A stretch of DNA of 30,252 nt from a virus (lineage: Duplodnaviria > Heunggongvirae > Uroviricota > Caudoviricetes): IMG/VR virus record IMGVR_UViG_2548876960_000006. One strand, written 5' to 3'. The first letter of the stretch is position 1; each line of letters opens with the position of its first letter. Below are positions 12,828-16,565 of this stretch, in pieces. The notes under the pieces were generated by a model. The model saw nothing but the letters and a program-made list of their open reading frames with translations, had not been told where the DNA came from and did not search any database. Position numbers and translations under genes: made by a program.

Positions 12828-13532
12828 ATGGCACTTTCCCCCGCGCAGCGTCACAGCCAGCGTATTGCAATGGAACAAAAGCTGAAGCGCAGCCAGGCAC
12901 TGGAAACCGCGGAAAGTATGCACCTGCTGATCAGGGCGCTGGAAACGGATGTGGAACACGTTCGAAGTCTGCCTACCATCGCCGATCGCGTCGAGTATAA
13001 ACGCGATGTGCTGTTGCCGCGCTGGGTTCCCACTGTGGAAGCCTATCTGGAGAGTGGCCAGGTGTATGCAAATCCGGTTTTCGCCTGGTGTGTTATCTGG
13101 CTGTTTGACGTGGGCGATCTGGATAAGGCGCTGGACTGGGCTGACATTGCTATCAGCCAGCAGCAGGCAACCCCGGATCGGTTACGCAGCAATTTTCCCA
13201 CTTTCGTGGCGGATACGATGCTGGCATGGGCGCAGGAAACCGCAGGGCGTGGGGAAAGTGTGGAGCCTTATTTCACCCGCACGTTTGAGCGGGTGGCAAA
13301 CACCTGGCGACTGCATGAGCAAGTGACGGCCAAATGGTTCAAGTTTGCTGGTCAGGAGTTGCTACGCAATGACGATGGCCAGAAAACGGCGGCGGGCGTG
13401 GATGATATTGAAACGCTGGAAAAGGCCGATCAGCTGCTGGCTATTGCAGAAAAACACTACTCAAAAATTGGCGTCAGAACGGCACGGCAGACGATTGCCG
13501 CTCGCATCCGAAAATTGACAACACAAGGATAA
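12828..13532 (+). CDS. terminase small (endonuclease) subunit (P2 gpM-like)
   Basis: 234 aa (P2 M is 247 aa) directly after the capsid gene. Confidence 0.7.
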   Translation: MALSPAQRHSQRIAMEQKLKRSQALETAESMHLLIRALETDVEHVRSLPTIADRVEYKRDVLLPRWVPTVEAYLESGQVYANPVFAWCVIWLFDVGDLDKALDWADIAISQQQATPDRLRSNFPTFVADTMLAWAQETAGRGESVEPYFTRTFERVANTWRLHEQVTAKWFKFAGQELLRNDDGQKTAAGVDDIETLEKADQLLAIAEKHYSKIGVRTARQTIAARIRKLTTQG

Positions 13533-13538
13533 CAACAA

Positions 13539-13685
13539 ATGAAAGAAAGCCATTTACAAGGTGCACATACCCATACCGTGGGGGCACATAGCCATTCTCT
13601 GGGTGGTGCACATACCCATACCGTGGGTGCACATAGCCATTCTCTGAGTGGTGCACATACGCACACTTTTAATACTGAGCAGTAA
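13539..13685 (+). CDS. unannotated 48-aa His-x-His repeat peptide
   Basis: ATG 13539, AAGGA 9 nt upstream, 6 nt after the gpM stop. MKESHLQGAHTHTVGAHSHSLGGAHTHTVGAHSHSLSGAHTHTFNTEQ. Encoded by an in-frame 45-bp tandem repeat. Missing from the ORF track because it is under 60 aa. Confidence 0.4.
   Translation: MKESHLQGAHTHTVGAHSHSLGGAHTHTVGAHSHSLSGAHTHTFNTEQ
13560..13666 (+). repeat. 45-bp tandem direct repeat, about 2.4 copies
   Basis: Units 13560..13604 and 13605..13649 differ at 2 of 45 positions, followed by a 17-nt partial third unit; each unit encodes GAHTHTVGAHSHSLG. Confidence 0.9.
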
Positions 13686-13781
13686 ACGACTACCGCAAGC
13701 CAGGCGGACGCGGTGGAGGGCAGAACACCTTGTGTGTAACTGCGCCGTGGAAACCGGCCAGTCCGCCTTTTCGGGGGATTT

Positions 13782-14234
13782 ATGTTTAGCGGAAAGCCGC
13801 TGGATTATCAGGATGAACCGCTGACCAATAACGGATTCTGGCCAGACCTGAATCTGAAGGATTTTCAGGCGCAGCGGTCACTACCGCCAGATATTGACGC
13901 TGACACCATCAGCCAGGCGCTACTTGCGGCGGTGGCGGAGGTGAATGCGGAGCTGGAAAACGTGGAAGCCAGCTGGAAAGCGAAAGGCAACACGCTGGCG
14001 GCAGAGGTACCAGGCGTAAAAATGGGCGGACTGAACAGCCTGTGCGCCCAGTATATGAAGGCCGTTTTTGCCAGGGCAAAAGCGGATCTGCTGGGGGAGT
14101 TTGCCACCATCGGGCGGCGTGATACCCATCCGGGACAGGAAAGCATGGAAACCCGTGCGGGGTTACTGGCTGAAGCATCGGTGGTGATCCGCCGTATGAA
14201 AGGGCTGAAACGGGCAACGGTGAAAAAAGTATGA
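13782..14234 (+). CDS. head completion/stabilisation protein (P2 gpL-like)
   Basis: 150-aa ORF in the position of P2 L after the terminase small subunit; G-rich RBS. Confidence 0.55.
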   Translation: MFSGKPLDYQDEPLTNNGFWPDLNLKDFQAQRSLPPDIDADTISQALLAAVAEVNAELENVEASWKAKGNTLAAEVPGVKMGGLNSLCAQYMKAVFARAKADLLGEFATIGRRDTHPGQESMETRAGLLAEASVVIRRMKGLKRATVKKV

Positions 14235-14737: not shown

Positions 14738-15441
14738 TTGCCGGTGGCGAGCTGAATAAAAAACAGCTGGCCGAATTGCGCAAAGCACTGGCCAGCATGG
14801 AGCTGCCGCCGAGAAAACGGCAGCGTCTGATCTGGCGTCTGGCCAAATATGGCGTGATTGCTGCGGCAAAACGGCATGTGCGCAATCAGGAATCCCCGGA
14901 TGGCCAGAAGTGGCCGGGACGTAAGACAAAACGCAAAGGGAAGATGCTGCGCAACCTGCCAAAGCTGCTGCATATCCGTGAAATGCCAGAAATTCAGGCT
15001 GTGCGGATCTATTTACAGGGCGGCGGATACCGGAACGGGGAAACGCCGGTACCAGCCGGAACGGTGGGTTACGCGCAACAAAACGGAATGCGCGTAAAGG
15101 TCAGCCGCAGTAATCAGCCACGGAAGGCAGAGGCCGGGAAAATGGCGACGCCTGCCCAGGCCAAAAAATTACGGGCGCTGGGGTACCGGGTGAAAACCGG
15201 TAAGCGATGGAAAAAGCCCACACTGGGCGAAATCACCAAAACGATGCCATACAGCCAGGCGGGGCTGCTGATTCGAAAACTCAGCGGTAAAGCCGTGAAA
15301 ACCAGCTGGACAGTGGATCTTCCTGCCCGTGTGTTTCTGGGCATGAATGATGATGAATTTGACAAGGCGCTGGCGCGTCAGCTTCAGGCCATCGGCTTTG
15401 GCTGGGACGTTAAAGCGCAGGATATTAAGGGGAAAGCATGA
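14734..15441 (+). CDS. phage virion morphogenesis protein (P2 gpS / Mu G family-like)
   Basis: 235 aa; basic N-terminal region and ESPDGQKWPGRK segment typical of this family; ATGA overlap with the upstream gene. Confidence 0.5.
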   Translation: MIAGGELNKKQLAELRKALASMELPPRKRQRLIWRLAKYGVIAAAKRHVRNQESPDGQKWPGRKTKRKGKMLRNLPKLLHIREMPEIQAVRIYLQGGGYRNGETPVPAGTVGYAQQNGMRVKVSRSNQPRKAEAGKMATPAQAKKLRALGYRVKTGKRWKKPTLGEITKTMPYSQAGLLIRKLSGKAVKTSWTVDLPARVFLGMNDDEFDKALARQLQAIGFGWDVKAQDIKGKA

Positions 15442-16565
15442 CCTGGCCAATTGTGACCGTAAACCAGGTAAATCAGCTGTTGGGTGAAACCAATGAAGTG
15501 GAACGCACACTGCTGTTTATCGGTTCGGGTACCAAAAATGTGGGGAAAACGCTGGCGGTGAATGCCCAGAGTGATTTTGATTCGCTGCTGGGCGAGGAAG
15601 CCAGTCCGCTGAAAAATGATGTTCTGGCTGCTCTGGCGAACGCTGGCCAGAACTGGTGGGGATTCATTCACGTCCTGCCAGCTGACGCGGAGGCAGATGC
15701 CTGGGTGAAAGCGGTTCTGGCCGCGCAGGTGGTGTGCTCTGTGGAAGGCGTGGTGCTGTCTGACGATGTGACCGCTAAAGCGCAGGTAAATCAGGCCGTG
15801 ACGTTACGATCCACCCTGATTTCAAAGTATGGCCGCTGGGTGTGGTTCATTCTGGCCGCACAGGGAATGCAGGACGAAGAAGCCCAGGCGGATTATCAGG
15901 TACGCATGGCCACCCTTCAGGATGGCATTGCAGAAAAGGCGGTGCAGCTGGTTCCCCGCCTGTGGGGAAATGAACCGGGTGTGCTGGCTGGTCGCCTGTG
16001 TAGCCGAGCGGTAACCATTGCTGACAGTCCGGCGCGGGTTAAAACCGGTGCTCTGATGAATCTTGGCAGTGATGAAATGCCGGTTGATGGTACCGGGGAA
16101 GTGCTGGAACTGGCCACACTTCAGGCGCTTGAAGCACAGCGTTTCAGTGTGCCGATGTGGTACCCGGATTATGACGGTTTTTACTGGGCTGATGGCCGCA
16201 CGCTGGATGTTGAGGGCGGCGATTATCAGTCGATTGAAACCCTGCGCGTTGCGGATAAAGCTGCCCGCCGTGTTCGTCTGCTGGCTATCAGCAAAATCGC
16301 GGATCGCTCGCTGAACAGTACGCCGGGAAGTATCGCCGCACATCAGACACTGTTTGCCCGTCCACTGCGTGAAATGTCCACTGCAGCCAGCATTAACGGT
16401 GTGTCATTTCCGGGTGAAGTGAAGCCGCCGCAGGATGGTGATGTGACCATTGTCTGGAAAAACAAAAAGGCGGTGGATATTTACATTGTGGTGCGCACCT
16501 GGGAAGTGCCGCTGCAAATCACCATCAGTCTGTTACTGGATGCGAGTCTGGAGGCTACAGCATGA
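15438..16565 (+). CDS. putative tail sheath protein
   Basis: 375 aa, immediately followed by a 151-aa tube-like ORF; ATGA-coupled. Assigned by size and synteny, no motif verified. Confidence 0.45.
   Translation: MTWPIVTVNQVNQLLGETNEVERTLLFIGSGTKNVGKTLAVNAQSDFDSLLGEEASPLKNDVLAALANAGQNWWGFIHVLPADAEADAWVKAVLAAQVVCSVEGVVLSDDVTAKAQVNQAVTLRSTLISKYGRWVWFILAAQGMQDEEAQADYQVRMATLQDGIAEKAVQLVPRLWGNEPGVLAGRLCSRAVTIADSPARVKTGALMNLGSDEMPVDGTGEVLELATLQALEAQRFSVPMWYPDYDGFYWADGRTLDVEGGDYQSIETLRVADKAARRVRLLAISKIADRSLNSTPGSIAAHQTLFARPLREMSTAASINGVSFPGEVKPPQDGDVTIVWKNKKAVDIYIVVRTWEVPLQITISLLLDASLEATA

Follow-up and report, generated by a model that had tools for sequence, protein, structure and literature searches.

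Organisation of the M-L locus

The window, i.e. the whole stretch of 30,252 nucleotides analysed here, is the genome of a P2-type phage in the ESSI-2 group (Peduoviridae, Quadragintavirus). Between the genes for the terminase small subunit, gpM, and the head completion protein, gpL, it carries a short open reading frame (ORF) whose product, MKESHLQGAHTHTVGAHSHSLGGAHTHTVGAHSHSLSGAHTHTFNTEQ, is made up of an N-terminal cap (MKESHLQ), five histidine-x-histidine (HxH) motifs at residues 10, 17, 25, 32 and 40, and a C-terminal cap (FNTEQ). The frame belongs to an unbroken run of genes on the same strand (scaffold, capsid, terS, the HxH ORF, gpL, gpR, gpS and sheath), and the order O-N-M-HxH ORF-L-R-S is that of the late structural operon. 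This region is 86-95% identical to that of Escherichia phages ESSI2_ev129, ev015 and ev040, and related prophages with a region in this range of identity were found in 25 of 5,426 complete E. coli genomes. Coordinates of the features are listed in Table 1.

Table 1. Features of the M-L locus, of the tail fibre genes and of one related chimeric gene (positions are those of the window unless another record is named)
Feature	Position	Strand	Evidence and remarks
gpM, terminase small subunit	12828..13532	+	PF05944, E = 1e-39; upstream neighbour of the HxH ORF
Shine-Dalgarno sequence AAGGA	13525..13529	+	Within the last gpM codons; 9-nt spacer to ATG; kept in 11/11 carriers
HxH mini-gene, 48 codons incl. 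stop (ATG 13539 to TAA 13685)	13539..13685	+	ORF translation, PF03335, relatives, pN/pS, public gene calls
45-bp (15-codon) tandem repeat, 2.2 copies	13560..13660	+	TRF, 96% matches
Structured RNA element, stop codon to gpL	13686..13781	+	Covariation; context, not part of the HxH gene
gpL, head completion / Ad1 adaptor	13782..14234	+	PF05926, E = 2e-38; downstream neighbour of the HxH ORF
Tail fibre with T4-gp37-like tip	22653..24257	+	PF12571 N-domain, Collar domain, six HxH motifs
Tail-fibre assembly chaperone (Caudo_TAP)	24257..24844	+	PF02413, E = 5e-36
Antisense ORF, 69 aa	13457..13666	-	Spans the repeat, overlaps the gpM 3' end
Antisense ORF, 60 aa	13474..13656	-	Spans the repeat
Antisense ORF, 36 aa	13554..13664	-	Spans the repeat
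YpM_44 chimera	L215 3147..3860; OR545055.1 45202..45915		E = 4e-32 to P2 G

A crude consensus scan of the + strand flanks of the HxH ORF detected neither a sigma-70-like promoter nor a simple terminator. The HxH mini-gene is an accessory gene of the late structural operon; its classification as a classic moron was rejected, as it has no promoter or terminator of its own and starts 6 nt past the gpM stop codon (13530-13532). Histidine accounts for 11 of its 48 codons, which alternate with other codons and are never consecutive. The tandem repeat is composed of a 21-nt and a 24-nt sub-unit, with 2 mismatches in 45 positions between its two full units and a partial third copy, and is a substrate for copy-number change. 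A first-pass annotation of this DNA had described the ORF, with its coordinates, 48 codons and AAGGA 9 nt upstream, exactly as the sequence has it, and its account of the 45-bp repeat agreed with both TRF and the comparison of units. That annotation had also called the ORF unannotated, which is true of the ORF track it was given but not elsewhere, since RefSeq/PGAP annotates homologues. These, found in E. coli prophages and ESSI2_ev129, are named 'hypothetical protein', 'phage tail protein' or 'tail fiber protein', and at least 24 public contigs have a gene call for precisely the 48-aa product, placed between gpM and gpL in each of them. The existence of the ORF is therefore not new.

Coding status of the HxH frame

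The HxH peptide scored 25.2 bits on Pfam family PF03335 ('Phage tail fibre repeat'; gathering cut-off 20 bits) over 5 stretches, and longer relatives scored 29.8 and 33.8 bits. No Pfam or PHROG domain besides PF03335 was found in its 48 aa. We surveyed 102 loci in which both gpM and gpL could be located. The ORF was present in 11 of them as 10 distinct DNA versions, coding for 32, 32, 33, 48, 53, 61, 68, 78, 78 and 82 aa with 3-10 HxH motifs. All 11 carriers kept the Shine-Dalgarno sequence, the start MKESHLQG, an open frame and the end HTHTFNTE(Q/H). The repeat units between these caps varied widely (GAHTHTV, GAHSHSL, SAYNHSA, GAHTHSV) yet retained x-H-x-H. Comparison of the M-L interval across relatives, which the first-pass annotation had proposed, thus found start codon and frame preserved and copy number variable.

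Two antisense frames are also free of stop codons over the repeat, so openness alone is uninformative, and pN/pS was therefore compared in all six frames using 33 HxH-anchored units; since these units are paralogous, the values are supportive rather than rigorous. The annotated frame (+0) gave the lowest value, 0.43, the other five frames giving 0.59 (antisense frame -2), 0.76, 1.06, 2.0 and 2.8. The three antisense ORFs of Table 1 were rejected as genes, as they are stop-free merely through the composition of the repeat, have a higher pN/pS than the sense frame and overlap the 3' end of gpM. His, Thr, Gly, Ala and Val codons of the HxH units differ at the wobble base, and serine at equivalent positions of the repeat has the codon TCT in some units but AGT or AGC in others. 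Such switching between serine codon families would make sense only under selection on the protein of the annotated frame. Stronger coding evidence than pN/pS comes from Ewingella prophages, in which the HxH repeat runs in frame behind a globular domain (see below). Taking the PF03335 score, the ORF conserved in relatives and pN/pS together, the earlier claim of a genuine coding frame is borne out, and the HxH mini-gene is very probably a real, translated gene.

The M-L junction as an optional cargo slot

The least biased sample of the junction is the set of 78 IMG/VR loci closest in gpM, of which 4 carried the HxH gene, 4 an unrelated gene for 63-65 aa and 70 a spacer only. This empty state is a spacer of 95-99 nt that holds nothing but a conserved RNA hairpin. 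Of the 12 relatives nearest to the window, with gpM identities of 96% or more, 4 were carriers and 8 had empty slots, and in the complete E. coli genomes the HxH gene was found in 5 of the 25 related prophages (5 of 5,426 genomes), about 20 of the 25 slots being empty. In P2 itself, M and L are separated by 99 nt without a gene, in agreement with the first-pass annotation. A sensitive blastn search found the DNA of the HxH ORF nowhere outside the M-L slot, fibre genes included; the ORF thus did not arise recently as a piece of a fibre gene, and the resemblance to fibres does lie at the protein level only, as had been noted earlier. Judged from these distributions, the HxH cassette is gained and lost freely and is dispensable.

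In ESSI2_ev015 and ev040 the alternative gene of 63-65 aa bears the annotation 'L33', taken from the ORF of that name in phage phiP27, and it was seen at six loci (L002, which is ESSI2_ev015, L023, L045, L046, L064 and L105). Its product belongs to PHROG 8618 and is an SH3/Tudor-like β-barrel of about 60 aa with the consensus ISGE.G.VKARAEY...YLIHY.AADGR...WFDE. Profile search placed 842 clusters in this family, mostly of 60-65 aa. The fold is a generic SH3/Tudor/KOW barrel, and a PDB profile search with it returned nothing significant. Burkholderia and Bordetella phages also have members of the family in arrays of early genes, and the one in phiP27 adjoins HNH/terminase genes. The window peptide has no such barrel, and its assignment to the L33 barrel family was rejected, the only relation being orthology to the Ewingella tail described next. 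As a separate observation, an E. coli protein of 144 aa (P0059) joins the L33 barrel to the C-terminal part of a DUF2586 sheath-like protein and looks like a deletion chimera reaching from the slot to the gene at 15438..16565 of the window.

In Ewingella prophages the slot gene codes for 89-100 aa, namely the L33 barrel followed in frame by 3-4 HxH motifs and the end ...GSHTHTF (five distinct proteins, P0010-P0014; loci L024 and L188). The 3' end of this fusion gene is collinear with that of the window ORF, at about 73% identity across the final two HxH units, and the element downstream is common to both; 12 extra nt in the E. coli lineage add NTEQ. These collinear, homologous 3' ends make the window ORF the positional and sequence orthologue of the tail of the two-part gene. 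The two genes share the M-L slot and the same kind of tail ending in ...HTHTF. However, the window gene has no barrel, begins at a start of its own (MKESHLQ), is extended by four residues (NTEQ) and spaces its HxH motifs by 7/8 residues, as against 8/8 in the Ewingella tail. In Ewingella sp. L026 the barrel is ended by a stop codon and the HxH tail is decaying behind it. Since other extended members of the L33 family end in an acidic tail of unrelated sequence, HxH tails occur in the Ewingella group only; no barrel-HxH fusion of the Ewingella type was found in IMG/VR. An AF2 monomer model of the fusion (82 sequences; an alignment of 12 sequences gave an unusable pLDDT of 49) showed a confident barrel and an unstructured HxH tail.

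When 1.84 billion representative proteins were searched exhaustively with phmmer, just seven matched the HxH peptide. One of these, a second HxH mini-protein of 54 aa, MMNNKNNNVCTHNHAVGAHTHSLGGTHSHTPGVHTHSLGGTHTHTLGAHTHEQA, has caps unlike those of the window peptide, but its motif spacing of 7-8-7-8-7 matches the 7-8-7-8 in the window. Its gene, known from a single contig (L107), also lies between gpM and gpL of a P2-like phage, the gpL of which is 58% identical to that of the window. It sits on the gpL side of the conserved intergenic element, with 3 nt left to gpL, and the window ORF on the gpM side. The same kind of peptide in the same slot at a different insertion point points to recruitment rather than accident, and by sequence and position the 54-aa gene is an independent second case in the M-L gap. 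Much longer arrays, of about 10 to 40 consecutive HxH motifs, were noticed in P0007 (234 aa), P0008 (1026 aa) and the fibre of Aeromonas phage phiA050 (L009); their motifs are 6-8 residues apart, like those of the window peptide and unlike those of the window's own fibre, and the arrays are longer than that of gp37. Further tblastn matches that lay at places without a tail-fibre annotation, in Aeromonas phiA050, phage 204576 and ECO26.1, proved to be ordinary fibre C-termini.

Could the window ORF be an orphan remnant, i.e. an HxH tail left over after loss of the barrel, perhaps translated but functionless, its length drifting by repeat recombination? Its 3' end is homologous to the fusion gene, Ewingella sp. 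L026 shows such a tail in visible decay, most slots are empty, and carriers are as rare as 5 in 5,426 complete E. coli genomes. A functionless remnant sits poorly, however, with a start, Shine-Dalgarno sequence, caps and open frame kept in 11 of 11 carriers through 10 DNA versions and expansions to 82 aa, with the pN/pS of 0.43 and the serine codon switches, and with the independently placed mini-gene in a distant phage. We regard this explanation as unlikely, while giving it real weight. Dispensability of the gene and the decay of the tail in L026 do speak against strong selection on the HxH gene, and selection may thus be weak.

The first-pass annotation had also suggested a head decoration, and the related alternative of a virion-associated mini-fibre, a trimeric rod built into head, neck or fibre, has in its favour the position of the gene in the head/neck part of the late operon, the fibre-type repeat and the globular domain of the Ewingella form, which could serve as an anchor. 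But the E. coli form has no anchor domain, the L33 barrel family also occurs in non-structural gene arrays, and the closest relatives make virions without the HxH gene; ESSI2 phages were isolated as plaque formers (PMC6969025). With a dispensable gene and a peptide without an anchor, head decoration found no support, and a virion component of any kind appears quite improbable.

Taken together, the survey reveals the M-L junction as a small cargo slot with four interchangeable states: empty, barrel, barrel plus HxH, and HxH.

A conserved RNA hairpin between the slot and gpL

The upstream ORF, whatever the state of the slot, stops 0-3 nt before a structured RNA element that extends to gpL. The element was present in all of the approximately 100 M-L loci surveyed, including those with empty slots, down to 55% identity in gpM. 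On its 5' side it has a nearly invariant single-stranded stretch, GACUACCGCAAGCC, followed by helices P1 (13702-13709 with 13761-13768) and P2 (13711-13714 with 13753-13756), the nearly invariant internal loops GGAGG and GUGGAAA and an apical hairpin at about 13721-13742; a U-run and the Shine-Dalgarno sequence of gpL (GGGGGA, 13773-13778) come after it. In an alignment of 18 sequences, 98.9% of cells were paired and 7 of 15 pairs showed compensatory changes; the covariation score was reached by 0 of 500 shuffles, and controls in shifted register paired at 32-54%. The structure emerged by comparative analysis only, the single-sequence fold being unexceptional (z = -0.83). No Rfam match was found for the element, one miRNA match at E = 0.56 being dismissed, and the P2 M-L gap has an analogous hairpin. 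The hairpin may serve to split the capsid/terminase part of the operon from the later genes, as a partial terminator or as a processing site of the RNase III type.

Since the stop codon of the HxH ORF lies 1-3 nt before the conserved single-stranded leader and hairpin, where the gpM stop codon sits in empty-slot phages, the ORF or its repeat could be regulatory, translation of a His-codon-rich frame that ends at the hairpin tuning read-through, processing or translation of gpL and the downstream genes. The strong covariation of the hairpin, the U-run and the 11 His codons among 48 add to this picture, which resembles a leader of the his-operon type, a short ORF rich in His codons ending beside a hairpin and a U-run. 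The his-operon leader, however, has a run of His codons, whereas those of the HxH ORF alternate and are never consecutive. No alternative pairing of the kind expected for attenuation was identified in the window, where the hairpin does not overlap the HxH ORF, and the ORF is optional while the hairpin is constant, remaining unchanged with or without it, unlike in an attenuation leader. Moreover, the sequence scores as a protein repeat family, the same repeat forms a C-terminal protein tail in Ewingella, the mini-gene of L107 is placed after the hairpin, and three-fold variation in copy number would be odd for a calibrated leader. A regulatory role of the frame is, in our estimate, very improbable.

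Relation of the HxH peptide to tail fibres

The tail fibre of the window has four consecutive G-x-H-x-H-T-V motifs near its C-terminus, in keeping with the approximately four reported in the first-pass annotation, and two earlier ones; the last four HxH motifs are 9 residues apart. Its C-terminus (...GAHSHTITV...) is almost identical to the receptor-binding tip of T4 gp37. This gp37-like tip is paired with a chaperone of the lambda/P2-type Caudo_TAP and not of the gp38 type, and related phages were observed to swap the tip for at least five other C-terminal types. The only solved structure matched by the HxH peptide is that of T4 gp37 (2XGF), and only weakly (phmmer E = 4.7), and tblastn matches of the peptide fall in the HxH regions of gp37-type fibres. 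According to published summaries of the gp37 structure, seven iron ions on the axis of the needle are coordinated by the HxH histidines of its three chains, and these histidines are indispensable for function (PMC6957217; PMC11705849, citing Bartual et al. 2010).

The mini-peptide shares with the PF03335 repeat the motif G-x-H-x-H-(T/S)-(V/L), with a score above the cut-off. The known members of this family, however, are segments of proteins of about 500-1000 aa that have attachment and receptor-binding domains, whereas the window peptide is 48 aa on its own, its gene is placed among the head/neck genes of the operon, and its DNA recurs in no fibre gene. The gp37 tip has a 9-residue spacing and a C-terminal module, features matched by the window's own fibre but not by the peptide, which is spaced 7, 8, 7, 8 and has no such C-terminus. 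The difference in spacing, 7/8 in the peptide and 9 in its own fibre, argues against co-assembly in register.

Tail fibre assembly proteins, namely Tfa (P2 G, Mu U, lambda Tfa) and T4 gp38/gp57A, are likewise small, late accessory proteins and act on fibre tips. The HxH peptide, however, gave no match to PF02413 and showed no similarity to any Tfa; Tfa comprises an α/β domain and a helical domain, whereas the window peptide is repeat only. The window phage already carries a standard Tfa of the Caudo_TAP family, which weakens a direct partnership of mini-peptide and fibre. All HxH carriers with a complete fibre (the window, L029, L031 and L032, on shared IMG/VR contigs) have the gp37-like tip, as compared with 9 gp37-like tips and 25 other fibres among empty-slot phages and other fibres in two L33 phages; the nearest empty-slot relatives share the fibre of the carriers, and the association between slot and fibre is thus confounded by ancestry. 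In the Ewingella phage the fibre (547 aa) is built alike, with PF12571 and Collar, its C-terminus lying outside the retrieved locus.

The L33 barrel also turned up in a chimeric protein of 237 aa in Yersinia phage vB_YpM_44, in which a Tfa N-domain of the P2 G / Mu U type (25.1 bits on PF02413, cut-off 22.1) is followed by the barrel, in the usual place of the C-terminal, trimerising Tfa domain, and an acidic tail. The N-domain of Tfa is summarised as binding the fibre and its C-terminal helices as driving trimerisation (PMC9608196, summarising North et al. 2019). Homology of the L33 barrel to the Tfa C-domain was rejected after comparison. The occurrence of the barrel on two fibre-related, trimer-dependent parts is consistent with an oligomerising or adaptor role. 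The chimera gene, however, lies among methyltransferase/ParB-like genes and not beside a fibre gene, and as the L33 family is also found in early-gene arrays and beside terminase genes and its fold is generic, the fusions make thin evidence for a role in fibres. On present comparisons, a fibre-related role of the HxH mini-peptide is possible but doubtful.

A target other than the phage's own fibre was considered as well: the peptide might buffer metal, interfere with the HxH fibres of competitors or, as a decoy, divert a host defence sensor. The very high histidine content would suit such functions, as would the 7/8 spacing, which is unlike that of the own fibre and like that of the long arrays of P0007, P0008 and phiA050, and the L33 barrel family behaves as a mobile accessory, moron-like domain. 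Yet no signal peptide or other targeting feature is visible in the peptide, placement in the late operon would restrict its synthesis to lytic growth, and the metal demand of fibres is presumably tiny. Such a target seems to us improbable.

Proposed function and significance

The best explanation overall, which remains tentative and as a whole somewhat less than an even bet, is that the HxH mini-gene is a real accessory late gene whose product would be a metal-stapled trimeric rod and a non-essential helper or modulator of fibre biogenesis. The mini-gene would be translated late from its own Shine-Dalgarno sequence and ATG just past gpM. Three chains would then align, with six histidines holding one metal ion at each HxH level after the manner of the T4 gp37 tip, and the product would be a short homotrimeric, metal-stapled β-rod with five sites in the case of the window peptide. 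Recombination or slippage within the repeat would change the number of HxH motifs and so set the length of the rod, which would assist or modulate the biogenesis of the tail fibre with its HxH needle rather than form part of the capsid. By analogy with gp37, the one solved structure matched, and with the HxH tail unstructured in the monomer model of the Ewingella fusion, we put the chance that the mini-peptide is a metal-bridged oligomer at about even. A broader and rather unlikely extension is that free-standing HxH peptides form an unrecognised class of trans-acting fibre factors, copy-number-tunable metal-stapled mini-rods with or without an SH3-like barrel, which might nucleate, cap or poison the HxH needles of their own phage or of competitors; the M-L junction of P2-like phages would have acquired such peptides in two or more independent events.

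To our knowledge, HxH repeats have been described only within large trimeric fibres, of which they are internal segments. A literature search found no description of the HxH mini-gene or of any free-standing HxH peptide. What is new here is the stand-alone, repeat-only protein, the cassette with four states, and its recruitment twice to the same junction. Folding of trimeric fibres that bear HxH repeats requires dedicated chaperones. A natural protein of 32-82 residues consisting of HxH repeats only would be the minimal unit of the metal-stapled fold, a simple system for the study of fibre nucleation and metal loading and a possible building block for engineered fibres. If the HxH peptide acts in trans on fibre assembly, it would be a new player in the host-range biology of P2-like phages.
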